Of a stretch of 64,000 nucleotides of DNA, positions 2,151-52,438 are shown in pieces; positions within the stretch are counted from its first letter, which is position 1, and every line of letters begins with the position of its first letter. The position numbers and the translations under genes were made by a program. The DNA lies in assembly GCA_964560025.1 (NCBI GenBank), contig CAZLKC010000001.1, positions 89,010 through 153,009 of the forward strand, in the 5' to 3' direction. The DNA comes from an uncultured Dehalococcoidia bacterium (GTDB lineage Bacteria; Chloroflexota; Dehalococcoidia; Lucifugimonadales; Australimonadaceae). The notes beneath the pieces were generated by a model. The model did no database searches. It was not told the DNA's origin and saw only the letters and a program-made list of their open reading frames with translations.

Positions 2151-2250
2151 GCGCGCGGGGGCGTGTTGCGGGAAACGCGCCGCTTGCCGATAATGGCGGC
2201 GCCGCGCCCGCAGGCCGAACGGCGCGGCTGAAACGCAGGAGGCCCAACCC

Positions 2251-3120: not shown

Positions 3121-3599
3121 CCACGGCGCCGGCCTCCCAGAAGATCATCCTGAACACGACCGTCAACGGACAGGAGCACCAGTTGCTCGTCGCGCCCTAT
3201 CACAGCCTGTTGGAGGCGCTGCGCGAGGCGGCGGGCCTAACGGGCGTGAAGGAGGGGTGCAACGACGGCAACTGCGGCGCGTGCACGGTGTCGCTCGACG
3301 GGCGCATCGTCGACTCGTGCCTCGTCCTCGCCGCGGAGGCGGAGGGCAAGCAGGTGCAGACGGTGGAAGGAATCGCGCCGGACGGCCAGACGCTTCACCC
3401 GCTGCAACAGGCGTTCTTGGAGGAGGCGGCGCTCCAGTGCGGCATCTGCACGCCGGGTTTCCTGGTGGCGGCCAAGGCGCTGCTCGACCGCGAGCCGGAC
3501 GCCGACGAAGACCGCATCCGCCTGTGGCTGGCGGGCAACCTATGCCGCTGCACGGGCTACGACAAGATCATCCGCGCCGTCCAAAAGGCGCAGGGCTAG
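3117..3599 (+). CDS. Molybdenum hydroxylase set 1, [2Fe-2S] small subunit (CoxS-like)
   Basis: Internal start MTTAPASQKIILNTTVNG within track ORF 2592..3599; the upstream 175 codons overlap the M1 gene and are Arg/Gly-rich filler. Cys motifs CNDGNCGACTV, QCGICTPGF and NLCRCTGY are present. Confidence 0.9.
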   Translation: MTTAPASQKIILNTTVNGQEHQLLVAPYHSLLEALREAAGLTGVKEGCNDGNCGACTVSLDGRIVDSCLVLAAEAEGKQVQTVEGIAPDGQTLHPLQQAFLEEAALQCGICTPGFLVAAKALLDREPDADEDRIRLWLAGNLCRCTGYDKIIRAVQKAQG

Positions 3600-3637
3600 A
3601 CGCCGCCCATCACCTTCACCCCAGGAGCAGACGACCT

Positions 3638-5929
3638 ATGACCACCATCGAGCAGCCCAAAGAGTACAAGGTCATCGGCACGCGGCCCATCAGGCACGAC
3701 GGGCTGGACAAGGTCATCGGCAAGGCGCAGTACGGCGCCGACCTGAAGCTCCCCGGCATGATCTGGGGCGCCCTGGCGCGCAGCCCCTACGCCCACGCGC
3801 GCATCAAGCGCATCGACACCTCCAAGGCGGAGCAGGCGCCGGGCGTGATGGCCGTCATCACCGGCGCAGACATGCCCGTGGCCGAGGCCATCGAGATTGA
3901 GACGGGCGAAGATGTCACCAACCTCGCCCACGCCAGCGACAAACTCATGGCGCGCGACAAGGTGGTCTACAAGGGGCACCCGGTGGCCGCCGTCGCCGCC
4001 GCCGACCAGAACGCCGCCGTCGAAGCGGCGCGCCTCATCGAGGTGGAGTACGAGGTGCTGCAACCCGTGCTGACGGTGGACGAGGCCATGGCGCCCGGCG
4101 CGCCCCTGGTGCACGAGGACTACCCCGGCAAAGACCTGGGCGAGGAGACGCGCAACACCAACGTCGCCGACCACTTCCGCCACGAGACGGGCGACGTGGC
4201 GGCGGGGTTCGCGGAGGCGTCGGTGGTCGTGGAGCGCGAGTTCGAGTTGACGATGGTGCACCAGGGCTACATCGAGCCCCACAACGCCACCGCCATCTGG
4301 AAGTCGGACGGCAAGATCGAGATATGGACATCCACGCAAGGCGCGTTCGGCGTGCGCAACTCCGTCGCGCCCATCCTGCGCGTGCCGGACACGGACATCC
4401 GCGTAACGCCGCTGGAGATCGGCGGCGGGTTCGGCGGCAAGATCCCCATCTACCTCGAACCCATCTGCGCGATGCTCTCCAAGAAGGCGGGGCGTCCCGT
4501 CAAGATCGTGATGGACCGCAAGTCGGTGTTCGAGGCGACCGGCCCGACGCCCGGCGGGCGTATCCGCGTGAAGATGGGCGCAAACGACAAGGGCGACATC
4601 ACCGCCGCCGAGGTTGACCTCTACTACGAGGCGGGCGCCTACCCCGGCTCGCCCGTCGGCGCGGGCGCGATGTGCGCCCTTGCCTGCTACCGCGTCACCA
4701 ACGCGCGCGTCGACGGCTACGACGTGCTCGTCAACAAGCCTAAGACCGCCGCCTACCGCGCCCCCGGCGCGACCCAAGCCGCCTACGCCGTCGAGTCGGT
4801 GGTGGACGAGATATGCCAGGCGCTCGGCATCGACCCGCTCGACTTCCGCCTGCACAACGCGACGCGCGAAGGCGACCGCCGCGCCGACGGCCCCGTCTAT
4901 CCGCGCATCGGCAACCTCGAGCAACTCCAAGCGCTCAAGGACTCACCCCACTACCGCACGCCCCTCGAGCGCGAGGGCGCGGACGGCAAGCTGCGCGGGC
5001 GCGGCGTCGCCAACGGCTTCTGGTTCAACGGCGGCATGCAGTCCTGCGTAACCATCAACGTCAACAGCGACGGCGAGGTCGGCCTCGTCGAAGGCTCCGT
5101 CGACATCGGCGGCACCCGCGCCTCCATCGCCATGCAAGCCGCCGAGGTGCTCGGCCTCAAGGCGGAGGAGGTGCACCCCGTCGTCGTGGACACCGACAGC
5201 GTCGGCTACACCGATATGACCGGCGGCAGCCGCACCACGAACGCCACCGGCTACGCCGCGTACCTCGCCGCGCAGAACGTCATCGCCGGAATGAAGGAGC
5301 GCGCCGCCATCCTCTGGGAGAGCAACGCGGACGACGTGGAGTTCGAGGACGGCGTCTTTTCCAGCAAGCACGACTCGGAGCTCAAGATCACCTTCAAGGA
5401 ACTGGCCGCCAAGCTCACCGAGACCGGCGGGCCTCTCGCCGCCAGCGGCTCCATCCGCCAGCGCGGCAGCGGCGGCGGTTTCGGCGCCCACCTCGTGGAT
5501 GTGGAGATTGACCCCGAAACGGGCAAGGTGGACGTGATCCGCTACACCGCCGCGCAGGACGTGGGCAAGGCCATCCATCCCTCCTACGTGGAAGGGCAGA
5601 TACAGGGCGGCGCCGCGCAGGGCATCGGCTGGGCGCTCAACGAGGAGTACTTCTGGAGCGACCAGGGCGTGATGGAGAACTCCACCTTCCTCGACTACCG
5701 CATGCCGACGGCGCTCGACCTGCCGATGATCGACACGATTGTCGTCGAGGTGCCGAACCCCACCCACCCCTTCGGCGTGCGCGGCGTCGGCGAGACGCCC
5801 ATCGTCGCCCCCGTCGGCGCGGTCGCCAACGCGATCCACGACGCGGTGGGCGTGCGCCTCACCCAAGCGCCGATGAAGCCGCAGCGCGTCCTCGCCGCCA
5901 TCAAGGAGAAGAACGGTAACGGCGCGTAA
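3638..5929 (+). CDS. Molybdenum hydroxylase set 1, molybdopterin-binding large subunit (763 aa)
   Basis: Start MTTIEQPKEYKVIGTRPIRHDG within track ORF 3107..5929. Contains EIGGGFGGK, GVRGVGETPIV and other Ald_Xan_dh_C/C2-type motifs. I did not see the AYxCSFR motif of genuine form I CO dehydrogenases. Confidence 0.9.
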   Translation: MTTIEQPKEYKVIGTRPIRHDGLDKVIGKAQYGADLKLPGMIWGALARSPYAHARIKRIDTSKAEQAPGVMAVITGADMPVAEAIEIETGEDVTNLAHASDKLMARDKVVYKGHPVAAVAAADQNAAVEAARLIEVEYEVLQPVLTVDEAMAPGAPLVHEDYPGKDLGEETRNTNVADHFRHETGDVAAGFAEASVVVEREFELTMVHQGYIEPHNATAIWKSDGKIEIWTSTQGAFGVRNSVAPILRVPDTDIRVTPLEIGGGFGGKIPIYLEPICAMLSKKAGRPVKIVMDRKSVFEATGPTPGGRIRVKMGANDKGDITAAEVDLYYEAGAYPGSPVGAGAMCALACYRVTNARVDGYDVLVNKPKTAAYRAPGATQAAYAVESVVDEICQALGIDPLDFRLHNATREGDRRADGPVYPRIGNLEQLQALKDSPHYRTPLEREGADGKLRGRGVANGFWFNGGMQSCVTINVNSDGEVGLVEGSVDIGGTRASIAMQAAEVLGLKAEEVHPVVVDTDSVGYTDMTGGSRTTNATGYAAYLAAQNVIAGMKERAAILWESNADDVEFEDGVFSSKHDSELKITFKELAAKLTETGGPLAASGSIRQRGSGGGFGAHLVDVEIDPETGKVDVIRYTAAQDVGKAIHPSYVEGQIQGGAAQGIGWALNEEYFWSDQGVMENSTFLDYRMPTALDLPMIDTIVVEVPNPTHPFGVRGVGETPIVAPVGAVANAIHDAVGVRLTQAPMKPQRVLAAIKEKNGNGA

Positions 5930-10788: not shown

Positions 10789-10911
10789 AGATAGAGCGCC
10801 TGCGCTAGGTAGGGGTTGGTGGTCAGGCTATCACGAACGGGCGCCCGCCTTGTAGCGGCGGGGCGCGCCGCCTAGCATAGCGCCCGCCAATCACTTGAAA
10901 GCGAATCGCCC

Positions 10912-11769
10912 GTGAGACCCTTCAGCCTCCACGAACCAACCTCTGCCGCGGAGGCGTCCGCCGTGCTGCTGGAGCGCGGCGATTCGGCGCGCCTCTACGC
11001 GGGCGGCACCGAGTTGCTGCTGGCGATGAAGGGCGGCTTCCTGCCCTGCGACCACCTGGTGAACGTGAAGACCATCCCCGGCATGGACGCTATCGCGCTC
11101 GACGGCAGCGCCCTGGTCATCGGCGCGGCGGCCACGCACGCGGCCATCGAGCGAGCGCCTATCGTGCGCGAGCGCTTCCCGCTCGTCGCGCAGGTCGAAC
11201 GCCGCGTCGCCAACGTGCGCGTCCGCAACGTCGGCACGCTCGCGGGCAACCTCTGTTTCGCCGAACCGCACTCCGACCCTGCCGCGCTGCTGCTGCTCTA
11301 CGACGCGGAGGCGGCAGTCGAGAGCGCGTCCGCCAAACGGCGCATCCCCATCGCCGACCTGCAGACCGCGCCGTACGAAGCGGCGCTCGAACCCTGCGAA
11401 ATAATGACCGCCGTCCGCATCCCGCCGCTGCCCGAAGGCGCGCAGGCGGCCTACCTGAAGTTCGGCATCCACCACCGGCCCACCGTCGGCGTCGGCGCGA
11501 TGCTGCGCGTCGTGGACGGCGTGGTCGCCGAGGCGCGCCTATCGCTGGGCAGCGTCCCGCCGGTGGCGCGGCGCCTCCCCGAGGCTGAGACGTTGCTGCT
11601 CGGCGAGCGCGCCAATTGCCTAGACGTAGACTCCCCCGCCGCGAGAGCCGCCGCCGACGCAGCGTCGGCGCGGGCGGACGCGGTGGACGACCTCCACGGC
11701 AGCGCGGAGTACAAGCGCCACCTGGTGCGCGTGTTCGTGCGCCGCGCCATAGCGCAGGCGGCGGCATGA
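10912..11769 (+). CDS. Molybdenum hydroxylase set 2, FAD-binding medium subunit
   Basis: GTG start. MRPFSLHEPTSAAEA..YAGGTELLLAMK and the C-terminal DDLHGSAEYKRHLVRVFVRR motif. The stop overlaps the next ATG. Confidence 0.9.
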   Translation: MRPFSLHEPTSAAEASAVLLERGDSARLYAGGTELLLAMKGGFLPCDHLVNVKTIPGMDAIALDGSALVIGAAATHAAIERAPIVRERFPLVAQVERRVANVRVRNVGTLAGNLCFAEPHSDPAALLLLYDAEAAVESASAKRRIPIADLQTAPYEAALEPCEIMTAVRIPPLPEGAQAAYLKFGIHHRPTVGVGAMLRVVDGVVAEARLSLGSVPPVARRLPEAETLLLGERANCLDVDSPAARAAADAASARADAVDDLHGSAEYKRHLVRVFVRRAIAQAAA

Positions 11770-12248
11770 GCAACGCAACGACCCGGATCCGTGTCGCCTT
11801 CGAGGTCAACGGACGCTCCGTCGAGGCGGACGTCGAGCCACGCGCGTTCCTCATCGACCTGCTGCGCGACGAGTTTGGGCTGACGAGCGTCAAGCGCTCC
11901 TGCGACGTGCAGGTGTGCGGCGCGTGCGCCGTGCTGCTGGACGGGCAGCCGGTGAGTTCCTGCACGCTTCCCGCGTTCGAGACGCGCGGGCGCAGTGTGC
12001 TGACGGCGGAGGGCCTGGCGGACGAACCGCTGGGCGAGGCACTCGCCCGCGCGTTCGCACAGCATGCCGCATTCCAATGCGGCTTCTGCACGCCCGGCCT
12101 GCTGCTCACCGCCAAGGCGCTGCTTGACGCCATCCCCACGCCTTCTCCCGACGAGGTTGCCGAACACCTGGAGGGCAACCTATGCCGCTGCACCGGCTAC
12201 AAGAAGATCGTCGAGGCCGTCTTGGCCGCTGCGGAGACCGCCCGATGA
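11766..12248 (+). CDS. Molybdenum hydroxylase set 2, [2Fe-2S] small subunit
   Basis: Start MSNATTRIRVAFEVNG inside track ORF 11616..12248. Motifs CDVQVCGACAV, QCGFCTPGL and NLCRCTGY. Confidence 0.9.
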   Translation: MSNATTRIRVAFEVNGRSVEADVEPRAFLIDLLRDEFGLTSVKRSCDVQVCGACAVLLDGQPVSSCTLPAFETRGRSVLTAEGLADEPLGEALARAFAQHAAFQCGFCTPGLLLTAKALLDAIPTPSPDEVAEHLEGNLCRCTGYKKIVEAVLAAAETAR

Positions 12249-14485
12249 GCGGGCCCTTCTTCCACACGGTGGGCCAGGCCGTCCCGCGCGTCGACGCGGA
12301 GGAGAAGACGTCGGGCCGCGCCAAGTACACGACCGACCTCGCGCTGCCCGGCATGGCCTACGCCAAGCTCGCCCTCAGCCCCTTGCCCCACGCGCGCATC
12401 GTGAGCATCGACGCCTCCCGCGCCCGCGTCCTCCCCGGCGTCTACGCCGTCCTCACCGCCGCCGACCTCACCGGGATGGAGACGCACTACGGCTCCGACC
12501 GCAAAGACCGCCCCATCGTAGCGATGGGCAAGGTGCGCTTCGAAGGCGAACCTATCGCGGCGGTGGCCGCCGCCGACCTGTCCACCGCCGAAGCCGCCGT
12601 CGAGCTCATCGAGGCGGAGTACGAGGAGTTGCCGCCGGTCATCGGCCTCGACGCGGCGCTCGCCGCGAGCGGAGAGCCTGTGCAGGAGAGCAACGTCTGC
12701 CACCGCTACGAGGTGGCGTGGGGCGACGCGGCGCGCGCTATGGCGAAGTGCGACCACGTGTTCGAGGACACATTCACCTTCCCGATGGTCTACCACTACG
12801 CGATGGAGCCGCACGCAGTCGTCGCCGACTACCAGCCCGACCGTCTCAGCGTCTGGTCGTCGGCGCAGCACCCTTTCCTGGTGCGCGCGGAGTTGGCGCG
12901 CGTCTTCCGCAAGCGCCTCGACCAGGTGCGCGTGGTGGTTCCCTACGTGGGCGGCGGCTACGGCAGCAAGTCCTACACCAAGATAGAGCCGCTCGCCGCC
13001 GCGCTCAGCCGCCTCGCCGCGCGCCCCGTGCGCCTTGCGCTGTCGGTGGAGGAGGCGATGAAGACCGTGCGCCGCCACGGCACGCGCGCCACGATCCGCA
13101 CCGGCGTGCGCGCCGACGGAACGTTCGTCGCGCGCGAGTGCCGCGTCGAACTCGACACCGGCGCCTACACCGACAACGGCGTGCGCGTAACCGAACGCGC
13201 CGCCGACCGCCTCCCCGGCCCCTACCGCTTCGAGCACCTGCGCAGCGAGGCCGTCGGCCTCTTCACCAACACCACGCCGGCCGGGTCGTTCCGCTCCATC
13301 GGCGGCCCGCAAGGCGCGTGGGCGTGCGAATCGCACACCGACAACATCGCCCACACGCTTGGCATAGACCCCCTCGAATTGCGCTTGAAGAACCTCGCTC
13401 GTCCGGGCGAGGAGTTGCTGCGCGGGTGCCGCCCCCTCGAGGCCGACCTGGCCGCGCCGCTTGCGGAGACGGCGCGCGAGTTCGGCTGGCACGACTACAA
13501 GCCCGCCCCGGCGACGCCCCACCTCAAGCGTGGCGTCGGCATGGCCTGCGCTGTCGCCAACGCGGGCGCGAGCCCCATCTCCGGCGCGTTCGTCCGCCTC
13601 CATGCGGACGGCAGCGCCACCGTGCACGTGGGCACGACGGAGATCGGCCAAGGCTCCCGCTCCGCCTTGGCGCAGATTGCCGCCGAGGAGCTGCGGTTGC
13701 CCCTGGGTAGCGTGCGCGTCATCGCGTCCGACACGGACGCAGTTCCCTACGACCGCTCCACCGGCGCGAGCCGTTCCACTACGCTCGCGGGCCTCGCCGT
13801 CCATGACGCGGCGGCGGACGCGCGGGCGCAGGCGGCGGACGCGGCGGCGCGCTACTTCGAGACGTTCGCGGAGCAGGTGACGCTCGCGGAGGGCGCCGCC
13901 TCGTTCGGGGGCGAGAGCGTCTCCTACGGCGCGCTCATCGCGCAGGTGTTCGGCGGCGCGGGAGGCGAGATCGTCGGGCGCAGCGCCATCACGCCCAACC
14001 ATCCCTCCGGCAAACTGGCCGAGGATCCGGTCTTCTGGGAGGTGAGCATGGGCTTCGCCGAGGTGGAGGTGGACACCGAGACGGGGCGCGTGCGCGTCCT
14101 GCGCTACACCTCCGTCGCCGACCCCGGCAAGGCGATCAACCCCGCGCAAGTGGAAGGCCAGGACGAGGGCGCGGCGATGCAAGGCGTCGGCCACACGCTA
14201 TTCGAGGAGATGCGCTACGAGGAAGGGCAGTTGATGAACCCGAACCTGATCGACTACCGCGTGCCTACGTTCGGGGACCTGCCGGACGAATTCCACACGG
14301 TGCTGTTGGAGCGCGGCGACGGGCCCGGCCCCTACGGCGCCAAGGGCGTCGGCGAGGGGGGAATCGTCGCCGTAGCCCCGGCGGTCGCCAACGCGCTCTT
14401 CAACGCAACCGGCGCGCGCGTCCGCGACCTGCCTCTCACCCCGGAGCGGGTGTGGCGCGCGCTGAGGGAGGCCGCCGATGCGTAG
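12245..14485 (+). CDS. Molybdenum hydroxylase set 2, molybdopterin-binding large subunit
   Basis: Start MSGPFFHTVGQAVPRVDAEEKTSGRAKYT inside track ORF 12182..14485 (ATGA overlap with S2). Motifs YVGGGYGSK and GAKGVGEGGIV. Confidence 0.9.
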   Translation: MSGPFFHTVGQAVPRVDAEEKTSGRAKYTTDLALPGMAYAKLALSPLPHARIVSIDASRARVLPGVYAVLTAADLTGMETHYGSDRKDRPIVAMGKVRFEGEPIAAVAAADLSTAEAAVELIEAEYEELPPVIGLDAALAASGEPVQESNVCHRYEVAWGDAARAMAKCDHVFEDTFTFPMVYHYAMEPHAVVADYQPDRLSVWSSAQHPFLVRAELARVFRKRLDQVRVVVPYVGGGYGSKSYTKIEPLAAALSRLAARPVRLALSVEEAMKTVRRHGTRATIRTGVRADGTFVARECRVELDTGAYTDNGVRVTERAADRLPGPYRFEHLRSEAVGLFTNTTPAGSFRSIGGPQGAWACESHTDNIAHTLGIDPLELRLKNLARPGEELLRGCRPLEADLAAPLAETAREFGWHDYKPAPATPHLKRGVGMACAVANAGASPISGAFVRLHADGSATVHVGTTEIGQGSRSALAQIAAEELRLPLGSVRVIASDTDAVPYDRSTGASRSTTLAGLAVHDAAADARAQAADAAARYFETFAEQVTLAEGAASFGGESVSYGALIAQVFGGAGGEIVGRSAITPNHPSGKLAEDPVFWEVSMGFAEVEVDTETGRVRVLRYTSVADPGKAINPAQVEGQDEGAAMQGVGHTLFEEMRYEEGQLMNPNLIDYRVPTFGDLPDEFHTVLLERGDGPGPYGAKGVGEGGIVAVAPAVANALFNATGARVRDLPLTPERVWRALREAADA

Positions 14486-15477: not shown

Positions 15478-16341
15478 ATGCGCAACTTCGAATACGCCCA
15501 ACCCGCCACCGCCAGCGAGGCAAGCCGCCTGCTTGCCGGCAGCGACGACGCCATGGCGCTCGGCGGCGGCACCGCCGCGGTGGTGCTGCTCCACCTAGGC
15601 CTGCTGCGCCCGGGCCTGGTCGTCGACCTGGGCGGCGCGGCGGAACTCCACGGCGTGGAGCGACGCAACGGGGGCATGCGCGTCGGCGCGCTGACCACCA
15701 TCCGCGCGCTGGAGACCTCCACCGCGATTGGCGCTGCCTATCCGATCCTGGCCGAGGCCGCGTCGCAGGTGGGCAGCGTGCGCGTCCGCAACGCCGCCAC
15801 CGTCGGCGGCGCTGTCGCCTACGGCGAGCCGCAGACCGACGTTCCTAGCGCCCTCATCGCCCTTGGCGCGCAGATCGAGGCGCAGCACGGCGATGAGCGG
15901 CGCTCGCTGCCTCTGGCCGACTTCTTCCACGGCCCCTACGAGACCGACCTGGCGCACGGCGAAATCGTGAGCGCCCTATCGCTTCCCGCGCCTCAAGCGC
16001 GCACGGGCGGCTGCCACGTCAAGTTCACCATCGGCTCGATGGAGCACAAGCCTGTGGCCAATGCCTCCGCCGTCGTAACGCTGGACGCGGACGGCGCGTG
16101 CCGCGAAGCGCGCGTCGTCGTCGGCGCCGTCGGGCCCACGCCGCTAGTAGCGAAGCGGGCTGCTCACGCACTGCTGGGCGCGCCCATCGGCGAGGCCGCC
16201 GCGCAAGAGGCGGCGCGCATAGCAAGCGAGGACGCCGAGCCCATCGACGACCTGCGCGGCTCCGCGTGGTACAAGCGCCGCATCGTCCGCGTGCTCGTCG
16301 AGCGGGCGCTGCGCCGCGCAGCAGAGCGGGCGGCGGCATGA
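15478..16341 (+). CDS. Molybdenum hydroxylase set 3, FAD-binding medium subunit
   Basis: MRNFEYAQPATASEA..LGGGTAAVVLL and the C-terminal DDLRGSAWYKRRIVRVLVER. The stop overlaps the next ATG. Confidence 0.9.
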   Translation: MRNFEYAQPATASEASRLLAGSDDAMALGGGTAAVVLLHLGLLRPGLVVDLGGAAELHGVERRNGGMRVGALTTIRALETSTAIGAAYPILAEAASQVGSVRVRNAATVGGAVAYGEPQTDVPSALIALGAQIEAQHGDERRSLPLADFFHGPYETDLAHGEIVSALSLPAPQARTGGCHVKFTIGSMEHKPVANASAVVTLDADGACREARVVVGAVGPTPLVAKRAAHALLGAPIGEAAAQEAARIASEDAEPIDDLRGSAWYKRRIVRVLVERALRRAAERAAA

Positions 16342-18632
16342 GGGTCGTCGGCAGTTCGCCCCCCACGCTCGAGGCGGAGGACAAGGTCGCCGGGCGCACG
16401 CGCTACCTGCCCGACGAGGTAATCCCGGGGATGGCGCACGCCAAGGTGCTGCGCAGCCCCTACGCCCACGCGCTCCTCGTCTCCATCGACGCGTCGCAAG
16501 CGCGCGCCCTGCCCGGCGTGGTCTGCGTGCTGACGCGCGACGAGGTGCTGGCCGACCCGCGCGTCGAGAACCTCTACGGCTACGTGTTCAGGGACGCGCC
16601 GCTGGTCGCCATCGATCGCGTGCGCTACCAGGGCGACATCGTCGCGGTGGTCGTCGCCGAGGACGCGCACACGGCGGAAGAGGCGCTCGAACTCATCGAC
16701 GTTGAATACGAGGAGCTGCCGCGCCTGCTGGACGCAGAGGACGCGATGCGTCCGGACGCGCCCCTCATCCACGAGCATATGTATCCCATCGCGTCGGAAC
16801 TGCGCCCCATCGAGGGGACGAACGTCTGCCACCGCTCGACTTTGGAGACGGGCGACGTGGAGCAGGGGTTCGCGGAGGCGGACGCGGTGTTCGAGGACGT
16901 GTACGAGGCGCCGCCCGTCCAGCACTGCGCGCTGGAACTGCACGCCGTGGTAGCCGACGTGCGCGACGACACGACGACCGTCTGGACGAACTGCCAGGCG
17001 CCGTTCCCCTTGAAGGCGGAGTTGGAGCGCATCTTCAAGCGCCCGGCGCGCGTCATCGTCTCCTATGTCGGCGGCGGGTTCGGCAGCAAGAGCCGCGACC
17101 GCATCGAGTCGGTCGTCGCAGCGGCGTCCAACTTAGCCAAGCGCCCGGTGCGGCTCGTGCTCACGCAGGAGGAGACCTTCCTCGCCGGGTACATCCGCCC
17201 CGCGTTCAAGTGCTGGATCAAGACGGGCGTAACGCGCGAGGGAATCATCACCGCGCGCTCCTACCGCTTCATCACCGACGTAGGCGCCTACGCCATCACC
17301 GGCGCGCGCAGCGCCAACAACACCGTCAAGGTGGCCACCGGCCCCTACCGCATCCCCAACGCCTTCGTCGAGTGCTTCGCCGTCTACACCAACAAGCCTC
17401 CCTCCGCGCCTTATCGCGGCCTGCCCACCACCCAGCACACGATGGCCTACGAAACGCAGTTCGACCGCATCGCCGACGAACTCGGCGTCGACCGCGTCGA
17501 GATACGCAAGCGCAACCTGCTGAAGGACGGCGACGTCCACGTAACGGGCGACCTCATCCGCTCCTCGCACGTGGCCGAGTGCCTAGACGGCGCGGTGGAG
17601 GCGCTGAGCGGCCCCGCGCCCGCCAACGACGAGCGGACGCTGCGAGGGCGCGGCTTCGGCTGCACCATCAAGTACACGCTCACGCCGCCTCAGCCCTCTG
17701 TCGAATCGGAAGCCGCCGTCGAGTTGGGCGCGGACGGGCGCTTCGAGGTGCGCGTCGCCACCGTCAACATCGGCCAAGGCTCCGACACTACGATGGCGCA
17801 GATAGCGGCGGAGGCGCTGGGCGTCGGCTTGGAGCGCGTGCGCGTCGTCCACAGCGACACCGCCCTCGTGCCGCCCGACAGCAGCACCACCGCCAGCCGC
17901 TCCACCTACCATATGGGCAACGCCGTGCTGGACGCCGCCTCGCGGCTGCGCGCCGAGGTGCTGGAGGTCGCGGCGGGGCTCTTGGAGGAGGAGCCGGACG
18001 CGCTCCGCCTCGACGGCGGCGGGGTGCGCCTCGCGTCCGCCCCCGAGCGGCGCGTCGCGCTCGACGAACTGGTCGCCGCCAACGGCGCGCCCCTTGTCCA
18101 ATACGGCCAATGCGAGGTCGGCGGCGAGTATGTGGACGAGCAGGGCAAGCGCTACCCCGTCGCCTCCACCTTCTGGACGTTCGCGGCGGCGGGCGCCGAG
18201 GTTGCGGTGTCGCGGGAGACGGGGCAGATCACGCTGTCGAGGGTCTCCTGCGCCGTGAACGTCGGCAAGGCGGTCAACCCCGTCTCCGTCCACAAGCAGA
18301 TCGAGGGCGGCCTGGGCATGGAGCTCGGCCCCACGCTGTTCGAGCGCCTCGTGTGGGACGGCGACGGCCAACTGCTCACCTCCTCGCTGCTCGACTACCC
18401 GCTGCCCACGATGTCCACGATGCCGCGCTACGAGACGGCGCTAGTGGAGCCCGGCTTCCCCGGCGGCCCCTACGGCGCCAAGGGGATGGGCGAGGTCGGC
18501 TCCGTCGTCCTGCCCGCCGCCGTGCTCAACGCCGTCTACGACGCCACCGGCGTCCGTTTCCACAGCGTCCCGCTCCACCCCGAGGCCGTCCTGCGCGCGC
18601 TGGAAGAGGCGGGAGAGGCGGCCGATGGCTAG
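16338..18632 (+). CDS. Molybdenum hydroxylase set 3, molybdopterin-binding large subunit
   Basis: Start MRVVGSSPPTLEAEDKVAGRTRYLPD inside track ORF 16098..18632. Motifs YVGGGFGSK and GAKGMGEVGSV. Confidence 0.9.
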   Translation: MRVVGSSPPTLEAEDKVAGRTRYLPDEVIPGMAHAKVLRSPYAHALLVSIDASQARALPGVVCVLTRDEVLADPRVENLYGYVFRDAPLVAIDRVRYQGDIVAVVVAEDAHTAEEALELIDVEYEELPRLLDAEDAMRPDAPLIHEHMYPIASELRPIEGTNVCHRSTLETGDVEQGFAEADAVFEDVYEAPPVQHCALELHAVVADVRDDTTTVWTNCQAPFPLKAELERIFKRPARVIVSYVGGGFGSKSRDRIESVVAAASNLAKRPVRLVLTQEETFLAGYIRPAFKCWIKTGVTREGIITARSYRFITDVGAYAITGARSANNTVKVATGPYRIPNAFVECFAVYTNKPPSAPYRGLPTTQHTMAYETQFDRIADELGVDRVEIRKRNLLKDGDVHVTGDLIRSSHVAECLDGAVEALSGPAPANDERTLRGRGFGCTIKYTLTPPQPSVESEAAVELGADGRFEVRVATVNIGQGSDTTMAQIAAEALGVGLERVRVVHSDTALVPPDSSTTASRSTYHMGNAVLDAASRLRAEVLEVAAGLLEEEPDALRLDGGGVRLASAPERRVALDELVAANGAPLVQYGQCEVGGEYVDEQGKRYPVASTFWTFAAAGAEVAVSRETGQITLSRVSCAVNVGKAVNPVSVHKQIEGGLGMELGPTLFERLVWDGDGQLLTSSLLDYPLPTMSTMPRYETALVEPGFPGGPYGAKGMGEVGSVVLPAAVLNAVYDATGVRFHSVPLHPEAVLRALEEAGEAADG

Positions 18633-41973: not shown

Positions 41974-41995
41974 TTGCCCCCTCCCCCTCATTTCG

Positions 41996-42024
41996 TTGAC
42001 CGCGCAACCACTGCGCCGTACACT
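41996..42024 (+). promoter_or_regulatory. Sigma70-like promoter candidate (TTGACC-17 nt-TACACT) for the MFS gene
   Basis: TTGACC at 41996-42001, an exact 17-nt spacer and TACACT at 42019-42024. The ATG at 42040 is only 16 nt past the -10 box, so the transcript would be leaderless or nearly so, and no SD sequence is visible. Confidence 0.4.
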
Positions 42025-42039
42025 GGGCGCCGCCCCCCT

Positions 42040-43323
42040 ATGAACCACCAACAGCGCACGCCTGCCGCCATCCGCGAACGCGGAGGGCAGCGCCCGCAGT
42101 GGCGCAGCGCCTTCAGCGCCCTGCGCCACCCCAACTTCCGCCTGCTATGGACGAGCACCCTCTTCGTCAGCGGCGGCAACTGGGTGCAGCAGGTCACGCT
42201 CGGCTGGCTCGCCTTCCACCTCAGCGGCTCCGCCCTCCAGGTCTCCGTCGTGCTGGGGCTGCGCGCCATCCCCCTGCTGCTCGCCCCCGTCGCAGGGGTG
42301 CTCGCCGACCGCTTCGACCGCCGCAAGGTCTTGCTCATCGACCAAGCCTTCCTCGCCATGCTCGCCGTCGGGTTCGCCCTCGTCGTCCTCGCCGATATCG
42401 TGCAGATGTGGCACCTCTACCTCTTCTCCCTCCTCACCGGCATAGGCTGGAGCATCAACAACCCCACGCGCCAAACCCTCGTCAGCAACGCCGTCCCCCG
42501 CGAAAGCCTGATGAACGCCGTCGCGCTCAACTCAATGGCGTTCAACACCACCCGCATCTTCGGCCCCGCAGCCGGAGGCTTCCTCATCACCTTCTTCGGC
42601 CCCGGCGTCAACTTCTTGCTCCAAGCCTTCTTCTACGTCGGCGTTATGGCGCTCATCATCCCCTTCCGCGCCGAGTACGCCTCGGGCGAACGCGCCAGCC
42701 GCGACGTCTCCATCCTCCACAACCTCCGCGAGGGCTTCGCCTACGTAACCAGCGACCGCACCACCCTCACCGTCATCCTCGTCGCCCTCGTCCCCACGCT
42801 CACCATGATGTCCTCCACGATGACGCTTATGCCCGTCTACGCCGTCGAAGTCCTCGGTCAGGCGCGCGACGAAGGCAACGAACTCGGCCTGCTGCTCACC
42901 GGGGCAGGCATCGGCGGATTCCTCGGCACCCTGCTTATGGCGATGTTCAGCCAGGTGCGCGCCAAGGGGCGTCTCATCCTCGCCGCCCTCACCATCGGCG
43001 GCCTCGGCATCATCGTCTTCTCCCAACTCGACACCCTCGCCGCCGCGATGGGCGCCCTCGTCGTCGTCCAGGCCGCCCTGATGGTCAATATGACCACCAA
43101 CAACACCGTCCTCCAGATGATCACGCCCGACTGGATGCGCGGGCGCGTGATGGGCGTCTATATGATGGACATCGGCATGATGCCCCTCGGCGGCGTCGTC
43201 GCCGGCCTCGTCGCCGACTCCTTCGGCGTCCAAACCGCCCTTTGGGCCAGCGCCTCCATCGGCCTAGCCGCCGTAGCCATCGTCGCCGCCCTCAACCCAG
43301 GGTTCCGCCGACTGCGCGTCTAG
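42040..43323 (+). CDS. MFS transporter (EntS/MFS_3-like)
   Basis: Start MNHQQRTPAAIRERGG inside track ORF 41974..43323. NFRLLWTSTLFVSGGNWVQQVTLGWL and GVLADRFDRRKVL are typical of this subfamily. 12 hydrophobic segments. Confidence 0.8.
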   Translation: MNHQQRTPAAIRERGGQRPQWRSAFSALRHPNFRLLWTSTLFVSGGNWVQQVTLGWLAFHLSGSALQVSVVLGLRAIPLLLAPVAGVLADRFDRRKVLLIDQAFLAMLAVGFALVVLADIVQMWHLYLFSLLTGIGWSINNPTRQTLVSNAVPRESLMNAVALNSMAFNTTRIFGPAAGGFLITFFGPGVNFLLQAFFYVGVMALIIPFRAEYASGERASRDVSILHNLREGFAYVTSDRTTLTVILVALVPTLTMMSSTMTLMPVYAVEVLGQARDEGNELGLLLTGAGIGGFLGTLLMAMFSQVRAKGRLILAALTIGGLGIIVFSQLDTLAAAMGALVVVQAALMVNMTTNNTVLQMITPDWMRGRVMGVYMMDIGMMPLGGVVAGLVADSFGVQTALWASASIGLAAVAIVAALNPGFRRLRV

Positions 43324-43328
43324 CGTCC

Positions 43329-44705
43329 CTACCCCGTCCCCAGCGCCGCCTTGAGCGCCGCTCCCAACGCCGCCCCCTGGCCCGGCAGCACCGTCCGCAG
43401 GTCGAGCAGCAGGCGGTCAGCCTCGATGCGCCCCAACACCGCTGGATCGCCCGTCCGCAGCCGCCGCGCCAGCCCCTCCGCGCCGCCGCGCGCCTCCTCT
43501 CCGCCGACGCTCACTAACCGCGTCGGCAGCGTATCGCCCGGCAGACTGCCGCCGCCAACCGTGGACAACCCCTCGACCACGCGCGCGTCGCCGCCCGCCG
43601 CCTCCGCCACTGTGCGCGCCCGCGTCTCCAACTCCTCCACGCCCGCCGCGATCATCCGCCACACCGGCAATTCGCGCTCCGCCTCCCCGCGCGCGTAGTG
43701 GAGCAACGTCGCGTGCAACGCCGCCAGCGTCATCTTGTCCGCCCGCAAAGGACGCGCCAGCGGGTGCCGCGCCAATCGCTCCACCAGCGCCGCCTTGCCC
43801 AACGCGACACCCGCCTGCGGCCCTCCCAGCAGCTTGTCGCCCGACACGAACACCAACCCCGCGCCCGCCGCTATGCTCTCCCGAGGCGTCCACTCGTGCA
43901 CCAACCCGTAGGCCGCCGTATCCAGCAACGCCCCGCTGCCCAGGTCGTGCAGCAGCGGCACGCCTTGCGCCTTGGCGACCGCCGCAACCTCCCCCAACGC
44001 CGCCTCGTGCGTGAACCCCACCACGCGGAAGTTCGAGCGGTGCACGACCAGCACAGCGGCGGTATCCTCGCCGATAGCCTCGTCGTAATCACGCGCGTAG
44101 GTGCGGTTCACCGTCCCCACCTCGACCATCCGCGCCCCGCTCTGCCGCAGCACGTCCGGAATGCGGAACCCGCCCCCTATCTCGCTCGCCTCTCCCCGCG
44201 CCACCACCACCTCCCTGCCCGCCCCCAACGCCGCCATCGCCAGCAGCACCGCCCCCGCGTTGTTGTTCACCACCATCGCGTCCTCCGCCCCCGTCAACCG
44301 GCGCAGCAGCGCCGCAACCGCCCGATGCCGCGAAGACCGCTTGCCCGACTCGAGGTCGAGCTCGAGGTCGGAGTACTCAGTCGCCGCCGCGGCCGCCGCC
44401 CGCGCGCTCGCGTCGGAAAGCGGCGCCCGCCCCAGGTTCGTGTGCAGGATCACGCCCGTCGCGTTGATGACCGGCGCAGGCCAAGCCCTCCGCTCCCGCG
44501 CCAACTGCCCCGCAGCCGCAGCCGCCACCTCCCCGGCGTCCGGCGCTCCCTCGCCCGCCGCCAGCGACGCGCGAGACGCCTCCAGCGCCTCCCGCACCGC
44601 CTCCACCACGACAGCGCGGTCATAGACCGCGAGCGTCTCCGCGAGCGCCTCTTCCGTCAGCACCCGATCGACGCTCGGCAACCTGCGATACGGATTCGCC
44701 GCCAC
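43329..44705 (-). CDS. selA: L-seryl-tRNA(Sec) selenium transferase
   Basis: 458 aa, GTG start. LPSVDRVL, VINATGVILHTNLGRAPL, EYSDLELDLESGKRSSR, MVVNNNAGAVLL, VVHRSNFRVVGF and the PLP-Lys context SGDKLLGGPQAG are all SelA signatures. Confidence 0.9.
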   Translation of the reverse strand: MAANPYRRLPSVDRVLTEEALAETLAVYDRAVVVEAVREALEASRASLAAGEGAPDAGEVAAAAAGQLARERRAWPAPVINATGVILHTNLGRAPLSDASARAAAAAATEYSDLELDLESGKRSSRHRAVAALLRRLTGAEDAMVVNNNAGAVLLAMAALGAGREVVVARGEASEIGGGFRIPDVLRQSGARMVEVGTVNRTYARDYDEAIGEDTAAVLVVHRSNFRVVGFTHEAALGEVAAVAKAQGVPLLHDLGSGALLDTAAYGLVHEWTPRESIAAGAGLVFVSGDKLLGGPQAGVALGKAALVERLARHPLARPLRADKMTLAALHATLLHYARGEAERELPVWRMIAAGVEELETRARTVAEAAGGDARVVEGLSTVGGGSLPGDTLPTRLVSVGGEEARGGAEGLARRLRTGDPAVLGRIEADRLLLDLRTVLPGQGAALGAALKAALGTG

Positions 44706-44760
44706 CCCGCCATTATCGCACGCCCCCGCCTACCCTATCCGCTCGCCCTGCACCCTCCCA

Positions 44761-44775
44761 TCCGTTCGCCCTGAG
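44761..44775. repeat. Truncated copy D of the CCGTTCGCCCTGAG palindromic repeat, cut by the IS relic
   Basis: TCCGTTCGCCCTGAG matches the left arm and loop start of copy B, then continues directly into the IS inverted repeat. The preceding CCGCTCGCCCTGCACCCTCCCA resembles the C-rich linker of copy B. Confidence 0.55.
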
Positions 44776-45147
44776 AGGGTGTCCTAAGAAGGGGCAGGGT
44801 GCGCTAATCGGTATAGGCGGATATTGGTCATCGCTAGGTAGCCCCACGCCTCCGTCGTTTGCGGCAGTTCCTCGTAGTCCCTGCTCAAACGGCGGTAGCG
44901 TCCTAGCCACGCGAACGTCCGCTCGACCACCCATCGGTGCGCAGGACGTACAAGGTGGCGTTGACCACCTCGCGCCGGGGGTAGATGATGCGGCACCCTA
45001 TGGGGGAAGGCGCAGGCAGCAGGGGTTCGAGCAGGCTCCATTCGGCATCGGTGAGGTCGCTGAGGTAGGCTTATCTGTCCATAGACAGGGCTTACGCCAA
45101 TTGCCCTCCCGCCCCTAGCGGTTTCGCTTCCCATTTTAGACATCCTC
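44775..45147 (-). mobile_element. Internally deleted IS5-family insertion sequence relic (~373 bp) with imperfect terminal inverted repeats
   Basis: Ends GAGGGTGTCCTAAGAAGGGG (44775-44794) versus the reverse complement of 45129-45147, GAGGATGTCTAAAATGGGA. Inside are N- and C-terminal transposase remnants only. Confidence 0.7.
44784..45058 (-). pseudogene. IS5-family (DDE) transposase remnant: N-terminal ~45 codons fused out of frame to C-terminal ~50 codons
   Basis: One frame reads [41 protein letters not shown] (the DUF4096-type N-terminus). Another reads [46 protein letters not shown] (the conserved IS5 C-terminus). The entire catalytic core is missing. Confidence 0.75.
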
Positions 45148-45334
45148 TAAGAGGCCTGCCTGGGTGGAGATGCTGGCAAGGCGGCGTCGCAAGACGCTCG
45201 TGGTTTGTGCGTCATACCACGCGAACATCCATGCCGGATGCCAGCTACAACCGAGCGTGCAGACAGCCTGATTGTTTCAATTGAGGACAAGCAGTTTATA
45301 CTTGACACCACCCCACGGCCGCACAGCAACGTCA

Positions 45335-45681
45335 CTACTCTTCGACAACGGCCTCTTCAACCAGCTTGCCCAAGAACGTGTCAGATCCCGAGGCCATGGC
45401 TAGGCATGCCATCTTGAGCATGCTGCGTAGGTCGTCGTCCGTTAGCGCCCCTAGCTCTCCCAATTCAGACAACCCCCCCGACGCCACCATCATTCGGCGC
45501 AAGGAGGCAACACTGAAGGAGCCGAAAGCGTCACGGCAGTCGTCGTACAGTTCTGGACTATAGGCGGCTTCGGCTGGTCCTTGCGGTCCGGTGGCCCCTG
45601 TGGTCCGGCTGGCCCGGTCATGCACGCAGTGGCAAACAATAGCACGACTAAGGTAAGAGTGGCTGTGGAAATAAACTTCAT
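45335..45681 (-). pseudogene. Small lipoprotein with collagen-like GXY triplets, interrupted by a 1-nt frameshift near 45590
   Basis: ATG at 45681 with GAGGA upstream. MKFISTATLTLVVLLFATAC is a signal peptide with a lipobox, followed by MTGPAGPQGPP. Restoring one base in CCACCGG^ACCGC continues GPQGPAEAAYSPELYDDC... into track ORF 45335..45625. The frame arithmetic (codon phase 0 to 1) fits a single-base loss. Confidence 0.55.
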
Positions 45682-45771
45682 GGCTACATCCTCACTTTTG
45701 CGCATTGCCTAGCCTTCTTAGGTTGTATACGTATGCTTATACTGGCATACGCATACCTCGTCAAGTCCCCT

Positions 45772-45800
45772 CCGTTCGCCTTGAGTGAACTCGAAGGGCG
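45772..45800. repeat. Degenerate copy C of the palindromic repeat (CCGTTCGCCTTGAGTGAACTCGAAGGGCG)
   Basis: Matches copy B at most positions, with 3 substitutions. Confidence 0.6.
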
Positions 45801-49395: not shown

Positions 49396-49513
49396 CGTAT
49401 GCCTCCTCACGGGGCGCCGCGCGCCGGATAGCGTGGTTCTACCACACTGCCCGCTGCGCCGCTCTCCCGTTCCCCGCCGCCAGCGCGTTGGCGCATAATA
49501 TGAATGCGGCGGC

Positions 49514-49600
49514 GCCGAGGTGGCGGAATGGTAGACGCGGCGGACTTAAAATCCGCTGTCCCTGTGGGACGTGTGGGTTCGAAACCCTCCCTCGGCACCA
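49514..49600 (+). tRNA. tRNA-Leu (anticodon TAA), long variable arm, CCA encoded
   Basis: GCCGAGGTGGCGGAATGGTAGACGCGGCGGACTTAAAATCCGCTGTCCCTGTGGGACGTGTGGGTTCGAAACCCTCCCTCGGCACCA. Acceptor GCCGAGG/CCTCGGC, anticodon loop CTTAAAA. Confidence 0.9.
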
Positions 49601-49624
49601 ACACCGCCCGCAAGGAGGCGCGCT

Positions 49625-50221
49625 ATGGCCGTTGCGTGGGTCAAGACCGTCGAGGAGTCGGAGGCGGCAGGCGAGCTCGCCGAACTCTACGAGGAGGCGC
49701 GCCAACGGCTGGGCCGCGTCCCCCCGATGATCAAGGCGCTCAGCCTCCGCCCCAAGGTGGCCGCCGCCAAGGAGAACCTGCGGCGCAGCCTCATCGGTGA
49801 CGCGTCCTCCCTTGGCGCACGCCGCGCCGACATGATCAGCGTCGTCGTGTCGGGCCTCAACCGCTGCCGCTTCTGAGGCGCCGCCCACGCCGGATCGTTG
49901 GTCCGGCGCGGCGACGCCGACGAGGAATTCTCCGTCGCCCTCTACAACGACTGGCGCAGCGCCGACCTCGCCCCCGAGGAGCGCGTGATGCTCGCCTACG
50001 TGGAGAAACTCACCTTCCATCCCGCGATGACCACGGCGGACGACCTGCAAGTGCTGCGCGACGCCGGCTTCACCGACGAGCAGATAACCGACGTCGTGAT
50101 GCTGACCGGCTACCGCGCTATGCTCAACCGCCTCCACGACGGCCTCGGCCTCACCCTCGACGACCACGTGGAGCGCTCCGGCCATGCCTTCGTCGACCGC
50201 TTCCCCGGCGTGGCGGGCTAG
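49625..50221 (+). CDS. AhpD-like/CMD 'peroxidase-related' protein read through an in-frame TGA (putative selenocysteine, CxxU motif)
   Basis: Track ORFs 49571..49876 and 49898..50221 are in the same frame, separated only by TGA (49874-76) and 7 sense codons. The joined sequence reads ...VVVSGLNRCRF-U-GAAHAGSL..., matching the S-x2-N-x-C-x-(Y/F)-C-x3-H core of this family. AAGGAGG lies 7 nt before the ATG at 49625; the earlier Met at 49571 lies inside the tRNA. Confidence 0.7.
49879..49913 (+). promoter_or_regulatory. SECIS-like stem-loop immediately 3' of the in-frame TGA
   Basis: CGCCG(49879-83)-CCCA bulge-CGCCGGA(49888-94)-loop TCGTTGG-TCCGGCG(49902-08)-CGGCG(49909-13), giving 12 Watson-Crick pairs. 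The G/U-containing apical loop lies 21-27 nt after the U of UGA. Confidence 0.55.
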
Positions 50222-50233
50222 CCGCCGCGGGCG

Positions 50234-52438
50234 CTAGCCCCCCGGCCGCAGCAACCGCCGAATCAGCGCGCCGCGCAGCTGCCCCCACGCGTGCTCCGCG
50301 TGCATCCGCTGGCTCATACTGACTCGCCAAGGGCTGTAGCGGTAGGTCGTGTACGCCTCGCTGATGTCGAGCACCGCCCACGCGTGCGAGGGCATGCGCC
50401 GCGCCAGCGCTCGCCCATACTCCAACGGCGTCTGGTGCGGGCGCTGCGGCGTCCCCAGCAGCACGCCCAACCGCGTCATCTTGCCGTACAGCTCCGCCGT
50501 TCGGTCGAGGTTGGAGAGGCGCCACCACGCGCGGTGGTAGACGAACGTCAACGCCGCGAACAACAATCCGGCCAACGCGAGCGCCGCCAGCAGCGTCTGC
50601 GAGAGCCCGCCCCCACCCGTCGCGGCGACGCCCACCGGCACGGACGCAGGCTGATCCTCGAGGAACGTCCCCTCGACGAAATCGGCGTCGATGCCGCCCC
50701 GCGAATCGGCGGCGCCAGCCAGCTCGCCCCCGAATTCGATCGCTTCCGGCGGCGTCGGCTCGAACTGCTGCCAGCCGAACCCGGGGAAGTACACCTCCGG
50801 CCACGCGTGGTAATGGAACTCGCGGACGACGTATTCGTTGCGGTCTTGGTCGTACTGCCCCGGCGCATAGCCCAGCACGTAGCGCGCCGGCACGCCCAGC
50901 GAGCGCATCAGCACCACCATCGCCGAGGCGTAGTAGTCGCAGTAGCCCTCCCGCGTCTCGAACAGGAAGAAGTCCACCCCGTCGCTGCCCGCCGGGGGCT
51001 GCGGCACGCCCAATTCGTAGCGGTAGTTGGCCAGCAGGTAGTCGCGCACCGCCAGGGTCTGGTCGTAAGGCGTCTCCGCGCCGCTCGCCGCCTCCGCCGC
51101 AAGGTCGCGCACCCGCTGTGGGAGCGTCTCCGGCAACTGCAAGTACGCGCCGGCGACCCAATCGGGATACGGCTCGGACGCACTCCCGCGCAACCGCGAT
51201 GCACTCGCCAGCAGCACCGATCCCTCCGAGCGGTAGCGCAGATTGAGCCGCGTCTTGAAGTAGTCCAGCCCCTCGCCGTACTTCACCTGCAGCACGTCCC
51301 ACGGCGTATCCGGGTTGGCCAGCGCCAGCGCCGGAGCGTCAAACCGCAGCGGATGCCCCCCGGAGAACAGGCTGTCCGTCGCCGCGTCCAACCGGAACTC
51401 GTGCCGCACCACCACCCTGTCTCCGCTCACTGCCTCCTGCGGCGCGAAGTCGATGAACTCCGCCGCGCCCGTCGACCAACCGGAGCCGGTGTAGTCCGTA
51501 TAGGCGCGGACGCGCCACAACTGCGGCGGCCCGGCGACGCTGAACAGGCGCTGGTCGGACAGCTGCGGATTGCCCCGCAGCGTCGTCTCCTCTTCGTAGG
51601 TGAGCGTGGCGTAGTGGCGGCGCGAGGGCAGCGCATTGAACAGGCGGCCCAATGCCTCCTCCACGGCGTCCACGGACGATTGCGCACGCCGCGCCGCGCC
51701 GTCGAACGGCGTCCACGGGATAACCGGCAGCGTCGAGACCAGCAGCACCGCCGCCACGCCGAAGCCGAGGATGAACACCGAGTGCGAGAGCGCCAGCGAC
51801 GGCGCGTACTCGATCCCCCGCTCGCGCCAAACGTGCTGCCGCCGCAGCGTCGAGGTGTGGATAAGCAGCGCGAGGCTCGCGGCCATAAAGGCGGCCAGCC
51901 ACGCCGCGCCACCACCAGCCACGTTTTCAAGCACCGTAACTTGCACAAGCCCCGCCGGCACGATTAGCGGCCACGCCTGACGCCGGTGCAGCGCCAGCCC
52001 CGCCCCCCAGAATCCCAGCGCCCAGAAGAGCGCCGTCATTAAGATGGCGAACTCCACCCGCCCGGGCAGCGCCTCCTCGCTCGCGATAGCGCCAATCCAC
52101 GCCGCCGCCTCCGGCGCGAGTCCCGCGAGCCTCGCCCCCAGGCTCTCTTGCGGCATCACCGCAATTGCCGAGGCGATGACGAGCGCAACGCCGCCCGCGA
52201 GCGCCGCCGCTTGCGCCCGCGCGCGTGGCCACCTGAAGTAGTCGCTGACTACTAGCAGCGCCAACGCCAGCAGCGTAACCACGACGATCGGCGCCATCCC
52301 CGGAACCCAGCGAGCGCTCTGCACCGGCCACGCCACGCTGACTAGCAGCAACCCCATGAGCAGCACGCTCATGCCCTCGCCGCTGGCGAAGCGCTGCCAC
52401 AGCGAGAATTCGCGCAGACTCGCGGCTTGGGCGCTCAT
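50234..52438 (-). CDS. Transglutaminase-domain membrane protein (TgpA-like: DUF3488 N-terminal helices, TGase core, DUF4129-like C-terminus)
   Basis: Start MSAQAASLREFSLWQRF inside track ORF 50234..53167 (ATGA overlap with the DUF58 stop). About 6 N-terminal TM helices. Core REGYCDYYASAMVVLMRSLGVPARYVLGY...HAWPEVYF (Cys-His-Asp type) and a C-terminal TM helix. Confidence 0.85.
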   Translation of the reverse strand: MSAQAASLREFSLWQRFASGEGMSVLLMGLLLVSVAWPVQSARWVPGMAPIVVVTLLALALLVVSDYFRWPRARAQAAALAGGVALVIASAIAVMPQESLGARLAGLAPEAAAWIGAIASEEALPGRVEFAILMTALFWALGFWGAGLALHRRQAWPLIVPAGLVQVTVLENVAGGGAAWLAAFMAASLALLIHTSTLRRQHVWRERGIEYAPSLALSHSVFILGFGVAAVLLVSTLPVIPWTPFDGAARRAQSSVDAVEEALGRLFNALPSRRHYATLTYEEETTLRGNPQLSDQRLFSVAGPPQLWRVRAYTDYTGSGWSTGAAEFIDFAPQEAVSGDRVVVRHEFRLDAATDSLFSGGHPLRFDAPALALANPDTPWDVLQVKYGEGLDYFKTRLNLRYRSEGSVLLASASRLRGSASEPYPDWVAGAYLQLPETLPQRVRDLAAEAASGAETPYDQTLAVRDYLLANYRYELGVPQPPAGSDGVDFFLFETREGYCDYYASAMVVLMRSLGVPARYVLGYAPGQYDQDRNEYVVREFHYHAWPEVYFPGFGWQQFEPTPPEAIEFGGELAGAADSRGGIDADFVEGTFLEDQPASVPVGVAATGGGGLSQTLLAALALAGLLFAALTFVYHRAWWRLSNLDRTAELYGKMTRLGVLLGTPQRPHQTPLEYGRALARRMPSHAWAVLDISEAYTTYRYSPWRVSMSQRMHAEHAWGQLRGALIRRLLRPGG

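Follow-up and report, generated by a model that had tools for sequence, protein, structure and literature searches.

The window, by which we mean the whole 64-kb stretch of DNA analyzed here, comes from a high-GC bacterium that is related to the Chloroflexota MAG RHO1_bin_38, and contains a gene for an AhpD-like protein with an in-frame UGA, a hairpin directly downstream of this codon and, 5 kb away, a selA gene (Table 1). The AhpD-like open reading frame runs from an ATG at 49625 to a TAG at 50219 to 50221 and comprises 198 sense codons, among which the putative selenocysteine (Sec) codon UGA is codon 84. The ORFs 5' and 3' of the UGA lie in a single frame and have GC3 values of 0.84 and 0.93, respectively, both of the coding type.

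Table 1. Features of the AhpD-like locus and the selA gene in the window
Feature	Coordinates	Strand	Basis or details
selA (L-seryl-tRNA(Sec) selenium transferase)	43329..44705	-	Pfam SelA PF03841, 425 bits, E = 2.6e-127, plus Se-cys_synth_N
AhpD-like/peroxidase-related (TIGR01926, CMD fold) gene, probable selenoprotein	49625..50221	+	Translation, Pfam, NCBIfam
In-frame UGA, probably read as Sec codon	49874..49876	+	Frame shared with both flanking ORFs; TGA recurs in orthologues
5' side of lower helices and spacer from UGA to upper stem, 11 nt	49877..49887	+	MFE structure of 49877-49918
Upper stem-loop of the putative SECIS, presumed SelB-binding part	49888..49908	+	9-bp stem CGCCGGAUC/GGUCCGGCG, loop GUU 49897-49899
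3' side of lower helices	49909..49918	+	MFE structure of 49877-49918, -30.1 kcal/mol; conservation weak

For the Pfam and NCBIfam searches the UGA residue of the product was written as Cys (U to C). In this form the protein matches the Pfam CMD family PF02627 with an E value of 1.5e-7 and the NCBIfam model TIGR01926, "peroxidase-related enzyme," with 114.9 bits against a cut-off of 81.8. The motif around the UGA is NRCRF-U-GAAH. Relative to the AhpD-type redox motif CxxC...H, the UGA stands in place of the second Cys, which is also the residue that 15 full-length homologues with CRFCG[AT]AH have opposite the U. The same position aligns with the CxxC of the closest solved structures, PDB 6K40 (AhpD; residues 11 to 177, E = 8e-25) and PDB 2OYO (an uncharacterized peroxidase-related protein; residues 18 to 178, E = 1e-24). 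In the displayed 6K40 alignment, GLNRCRF[U]GAAH is placed on GLNRCVYCAVSH, with CVYCAVSH as the counterpart of C-R-F-U-G-A-A-H. Both structures differ from the window protein in that their second redox residue is Cys instead of Sec, and no solved structure of the Sec form of the AhpD family was found.

With a UGA for the second Cys of the CxxC redox motif and xxxH after it, the gene has the CxxU arrangement of the AhpD-like selenoproteins, and "AhpD-like protein, TIGR01926, CxxU" is a listed prokaryotic selenoprotein family (PMC13188914). AhpD-like selenoproteins were first reported from the Sargasso Sea, with 27 sequences and a predicted SECIS (PMC1088965), and the family was the fourth most abundant in GOS, with 299 sequences (PMC2398784). 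The window gene shares with these proteins (COG2128/TIGR01926, CxxU) the family model, the CxxU motif and the existence of many Cys homologues. The cataloguing of AhpD-like CxxU selenoproteins and of their SECIS elements goes back to 2005, and the window case adds little to it scientifically.

The hairpin downstream of the UGA had been described in the initial annotation as SECIS-like in its geometry. Positions 49874 to 49913 (40 nt) read TGA GG CGCCG CCCA CGCCGGA TCGTTGG TCCGGCG CGGCG, in exact agreement with the string drawn there, UGA-GG-[CGCCG]-CCCA-[CGCCGGA]-UCGUUGG-[UCCGGCG][CGGCG], and both of its arm pairs are perfectly complementary. The apical loop as drawn, UCGUUGG, occupies nt 22 to 28 when the U of UGA is taken as nt 1, i.e., 21 to 27 nt after the U, so the spacing given for it was right as well. 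In the minimum free energy (MFE) structure calculated by RNAfold, a U.G and a C-G pair extend the drawn upper stem to 9 bp, pairing 49888 to 49896 with 49900 to 49908 and leaving a GUU triloop; a 7-nt loop on a 7-bp stem is the alternative reading of the same stem-loop. The upper stem starts 11 nt (49877 to 49887) after the UGA, and the lower part folds into two 4-bp helices, one between 49877 to 49880 and 49915 to 49918 and the other between 49882 to 49885 and 49910 to 49913.

The hairpin is more stable than high-GC coding sequence yields by chance. The upper stem-loop with four flanking bases (49888 to 49912) has a folding energy of -15.1 kcal/mol and the 52 nt from 49874 to 49925 one of -31.5 kcal/mol. 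Positions 49870 to 49925 reach -34.2 kcal/mol in RNAfold, compared to -23.5 +/- 2.9 kcal/mol in dinucleotide shuffles (z = -3.65), and this stability is reached by 0 of 200 shuffles. The comparison with codon-preserving controls that had been proposed along with the hairpin also came out in its favor: synonymous resampling by the codon usage of the window gives an equally stable fold in 1 of 2,000 cases when 51 nt from the UGA are taken and in 97 of 2,000 when 42 nt are, and shuffling synonymous codons within the gene gives a z of -3.17 (p ~0.003). Among 12,477 in-frame 51-nt windows taken from the coding regions of the window, just 0.26% fold as well. The stem makes use of codons that are rare in the window, namely, GGA, which accounts for 8% of the Gly codons, and UUG, which accounts for 11% of the Leu codons, and the exact codon string for the peptide HAGSLVRR has a probability of ~4e-5 under local codon usage.

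The initial annotation had cautioned that high-GC coding DNA forms many fortuitous stems, a reasonable caveat that these controls nevertheless answer. One rival reading is a functionless G+C-rich stem in a gene broken by a nonsense mutation, leaving a pseudogene or two small ORFs. Stems are common in a window of 70% G+C, and gene callers do split the gene into two ORFs of 83 and 107 aa in public assemblies. The TGA, on the other hand, falls exactly at a cysteine of the CxxC motif and recurs in three orthologues and in 99 distinct sequences of the family, the half of the gene downstream of it keeps both its coding GC3 and its amino acid conservation, and the stem ranks with the most stable 0.26% of coding windows and folds better than its codon shuffles. 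A chance stem in a broken gene is therefore largely refuted, and we give it next to no probability.

TGA occupies the same codon in the orthologues L001, L002 and L003, which have about 60 to 91% amino acid identity to the window gene, the highest value being that of L003, the gene of MAG RHO1_bin_38. Two database proteins that start just after the UGA position, P0016 and P0017, are C-terminal fragments of the TGA-bearing genes L001 and L002. The 21-nt upper stem-loop is identical in all three orthologues except for one A-to-G change in L002, which turns an A-U pair into G.U, and the RNAalifold consensus of the four TGA orthologues (the window gene included) keeps 9 of 9 upper-stem pairs with this single change. 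Conservation of the stem in TGA orthologues, which had been named as a check on the hairpin, thus holds in 3 of 3. It does not extend to everything that was drawn: the upper stem-loop proved to be the conserved core, whereas the lower stem, CGCCG/CGGCG, is not conserved in L001 and L002, pointing to the upper stem-loop as the predicted functional core of the element. Where the encoded amino acid is the same, the 8 hairpin codons are identical at 8/8, 7/8 and 8/8 positions in the three orthologue comparisons, compared to 65, 55 and 73% elsewhere in the gene, and the rare GGA and UUG are retained in the TGA orthologues. In the four distinct sequences that the sub-clade of the window offers, no upper-stem change is fully compensatory; true covariation is seen only between sub-clades, whose stems are in slightly different registers.

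How general is the association between the TGA and the hairpin? Scans of genome and metagenome collections yielded 159 related loci, among which a motif search found 99 distinct sequences with TGA and 22 with TGC at the CxxU position; most of the loci missed by the motif pattern have TGA. We scanned 510 nt around this codon for uninterrupted hairpins of at least 6 bp with a loop of 3 to 8 nt. The TGA forms show a single sharp peak, with the apical loop starting at offsets 19 to 20 from the first nucleotide of the codon in 52 to 54% of them; the background per position is 2.4%. With the loop start allowed anywhere from offset 18 to 26, a hairpin of at least 6 bp is present in 93 of the 99 TGA forms but in only one of the 19 Cys forms scanned (Fisher p = 3e-15). 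The start of the 5' arm falls at offset 13 to 16 throughout, and GG or GU is found in the loop of 90 of 98 family hairpins. In the family, 42 hairpin sequences can be distinguished, and at stem positions 16 to 20 the pairs are of several Watson-Crick types.

This fixed spacing bears on the possibility that the hairpin has another role in the RNA, as a ribosome pause site, mRNA stabilizer, attenuator or terminator, and is unrelated to the decoding of the UGA. Stable intragenic hairpins can pause ribosomes, and the sequence by itself is no proof of SelB binding. A fixed distance from the TGA in 93 of 99 TGA forms and a near absence where the codon is TGC are nevertheless predicted by a SECIS and not by any of these other roles, which makes a role apart from UGA decoding very improbable. 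An intrinsic terminator in particular was rejected, there being no U-run after the stem.

Folding energies across the family have to be read with base composition in mind. Sec and Cys forms are not told apart by the raw MFE of nt +10 to +42 (Mann-Whitney p = 0.78), since the genomes with Cys forms are higher in GC, but they are by Z-scores (p = 0.004). An advantage in folding over their own codon shuffles is seen for TGA forms (Wilcoxon p = 2.5e-9) but not for Cys forms (p = 0.42). The position-specific hairpin count and the codon shuffles are the informative family tests. The family offers a clean natural experiment, with TGA forms that have the hairpin, Cys forms that lack it and one pair with an identical peptide. 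The Cys member of this pair, L082, encodes the same HAGSLVRR as the window gene with the codons GGT/CTC/GTG/CGA and is without a stem at this position.

Such a pair also bears on the view that the hairpin is a by-product of the conserved peptide and that the UGA is read through without SECIS or SelB, e.g., by near-cognate insertion of Trp or Cys. HAGSLVRR is invariant in the four TGA orthologues, which forces much of their nucleotide identity, and the excess over codon shuffles is modest across the family as a whole, with a mean z of -0.75. Against this, L082 has the same peptide in other codons and no stem, the exact codon string of the window is improbable under local usage and draws on rare GGA and UUG, the stem exceeds the rest of the gene in conservation at synonymous sites, Cys forms have no excess over codon shuffles, and selA is present in the window. 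We consider a mere by-product of the peptide, with readthrough by other means, to be quite improbable.

No Rfam match covers the element, either in a search of the whole window at the gathering threshold or in one of positions 49400 to 50400 at E <= 10. Bacterial SECIS elements have almost no sequence in common, and the lack of an Rfam match is expected for that reason. Likewise, a covariance model (R1) built from 30 SECIS hairpins of another sub-clade, with 6 bp and a 5-nt loop, did not recover the element when the window was searched with filters off, its best matches lying elsewhere with E values of 0.4 to 9; the sub-clades are therefore alike in geometry, not in sequence. In the largest sub-group, the main Sec clade, the loop (C/A)GGGU puts G23-U24 exactly as in E. 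coli fdhF.

[quoted passage not shown] The window element agrees with this model in size (a GUU loop on a 9-bp stem), in spacing (20 nt, 49877 to 49896, between UGA and loop) and in energy (-15.1 kcal/mol for 49888 to 49912). The G is in place in the MFE loop G-U-U, an agreement that depends on the extra pairs U.G and C-G, as the drawing with a 7-nt loop has G-U at loop positions 3 and 4. The element also lies where a bacterial SECIS is expected, inside an ORF and directly 3' of a UGA that is in frame and has Cys as its counterpart in homologues, and its stem is conserved as expected, in the TGA orthologues L001 to L003 as well as in the family (93/99 TGA forms versus 1/19 Cys forms). Compared to most bSECIS elements, the stem of the window is longer and more G+C-rich (9 bp with a triloop) and unrelated in sequence; it is typical of the class and differs in nothing essential.

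The SECIS of E. coli fdhF is the experimentally defined prototype. The upper stem-loop of its minimal form begins 11 nt after the UGA, and its lower part is dispensable in E. coli (PMC8659212). The window element has the same 11-nt spacing and a G-U in the apical loop, and its lower part pairs back towards the UGA as that of fdhF does, without being conserved in the orthologues of the window. It differs in the length of the upper element (21 nt versus 17 nt in fdhF), in the absence of the bulged U17 from its MFE structure and in the position of the loop G-U, at nt 24 to 25 instead of 23 to 24, so that the sub-clade of the window is shifted one nucleotide downstream. By this comparison, the element is fdhF-like in geometry and not a sequence-level member of the fdhF type.

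Genes of the Sec machinery other than selA, i.e., selB, selD and tRNA-Sec, were not found in the 64-kb window by ARAGORN, Rfam and Pfam searches, the last of which covered ~40 ORFs, with those at 57 to 64 kb included in part; they may sit elsewhere in the genome. An exact-match look-up of the SelA protein gave no match. No selB follows selA, whose neighbors are an MFS transporter gene (41974 to 43323, + strand) and ~1 kb with little coding signal (44706 to 45784). Within the selA ORF, ARAGORN calls an 85-nt tRNA-Arg(gcg) at 43698 to 43782 on the - strand, which finds no support from the Rfam tRNA model, whether at the gathering threshold or at E <= 1, and is probably a false positive.

General reassignment of UGA was rejected, as TGA terminates 10 of 43 ORFs of the window in the ordinary way. 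In the stop codons of these 43 ORFs, all with coding GC3, TAG (27) is more frequent than TGA (10) and TAA (6). TGA is normally the dominant stop in sequence of 70% G+C, and TAG as the main stop is unusual at this composition.

Taking these lines together, the hairpin is very probably a bacterial SECIS located within the coding region of an oxidoreductase gene of the AhpD-like type (TIGR01926), whose UGA is read as selenocysteine; from the sequence evidence we put the probability of this reading at about 0.9. The suggestion in the initial annotation that the self-complementarity reflects selection on RNA structure is borne out by the folding controls, the TGA orthologues, the Cys forms, the features of the bSECIS model and the presence of selA. 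A selenoprotein gene together with selA would mark this organism as a user of selenocysteine.

By analogy with the E. coli fdhF system, from which we infer SelB binding, Sec insertion and the redox role of Sec, decoding may proceed as follows. As the ribosome nears the UGA at 49874 to 49876, the upper stem-loop at 49888 to 49908, with its GUU loop and 11 nt downstream, would be bound by the C-terminal domain of SelB. SelB would carry Sec-tRNA(Sec) and GTP, and the hairpin would tether this ternary complex at the A site. The UGA would then be decoded as selenocysteine in competition with release factor 2, and translation would go on for 114 more codons to give a 198-residue protein in which the CxxC redox centre has become CxxU.

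The consequence of the SECIS reading is mainly a matter of annotation, in that the locus would encode one 198-residue selenoprotein and not two small ORFs of 83 and 107 aa. Public assemblies call the gene as two adjacent ORFs of 83+107, 85+113 and 81+110 aa (L162 to L164, L001 5740-6342 and L002 4065-4646), so that the AhpD-like selenoprotein is systematically misannotated as two small hypothetical proteins. An exact-match look-up of the N-terminal 83-aa ORF retrieved three short, near-identical contigs that add no variation.

Several other features surround the AhpD-like gene. On the + strand, like the selenoprotein gene, a tRNA-Leu(UAA) gene at 49514 to 49600 ends 24 nt upstream of the ATG of the former, and the two may be cotranscribed. 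The rare UUG Leu codon at 49898 to 49900 spans the loop and the 3' arm of the putative SECIS, a coincidence with the neighboring tRNA-Leu(UAA). Between selA and the selenoprotein gene lies a second CMD-family ORF (PF02627; 45785 to 46402, + strand), which has neither CxxC nor CxxU and represents a different CMD type. Three gene sets for molybdoenzymes of the xanthine dehydrogenase/CO dehydrogenase family, with FAD-binding and MoCo-binding subunits, are located within 19 kb at 2194 to 5929, 10876 to 14485 and 15897 to 18632 (+ strand).

Another question is whether Sec was gained or lost in this branch of the family. The window gene belongs to a small Sec sub-clade (the window, L003, L001 and L002) with the motif CRF-U-G[AVM]AHAGSLVRR, which is distinct from the main CHY-U Sec clade and whose SECIS differs from that of the main clade in sequence and register. 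In a neighbor-joining (NJ) tree without bootstrap, this four-member sub-clade nests in a Cys-dominated clade and is well removed from the main CHY-U Sec clade. The window sub-clade may record a separate gain of Sec. It is possible, though on balance doubtful, that the sub-clade arose by an independent and fairly recent conversion of Cys to Sec in a Cys-dominated AhpD-like branch, its SECIS being built de novo almost entirely by synonymous changes. Starting from L082, the 9-bp stem takes four such changes (GGT to GGA, CTC to TTG, GTG to GTC and CGA to CGG). If a recent conversion did take place, the sub-clade would be a natural snapshot of the origin of a SECIS without change of the protein. 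Alternatively, Sec may be the ancestral state, with several losses since. L091, a Sec form with a hairpin of the main-clade type, stands at the base of the Cys-dominated clade in the same tree without bootstrap, and its position hints at ancestral Sec.

The only Cys form within the otherwise all-Sec main clade of the NJ tree is L079 3244, from an archaeal (Aenigmatarchaeota) MAG. TGA-containing AhpD-like genes also occur as paralogues: four Dehalococcoidia MAGs (L059, L070, L072 and L077) carry three of them each within a few kilobases, and L060, L135, L136, L138, L152, L159 and L160 carry two each.
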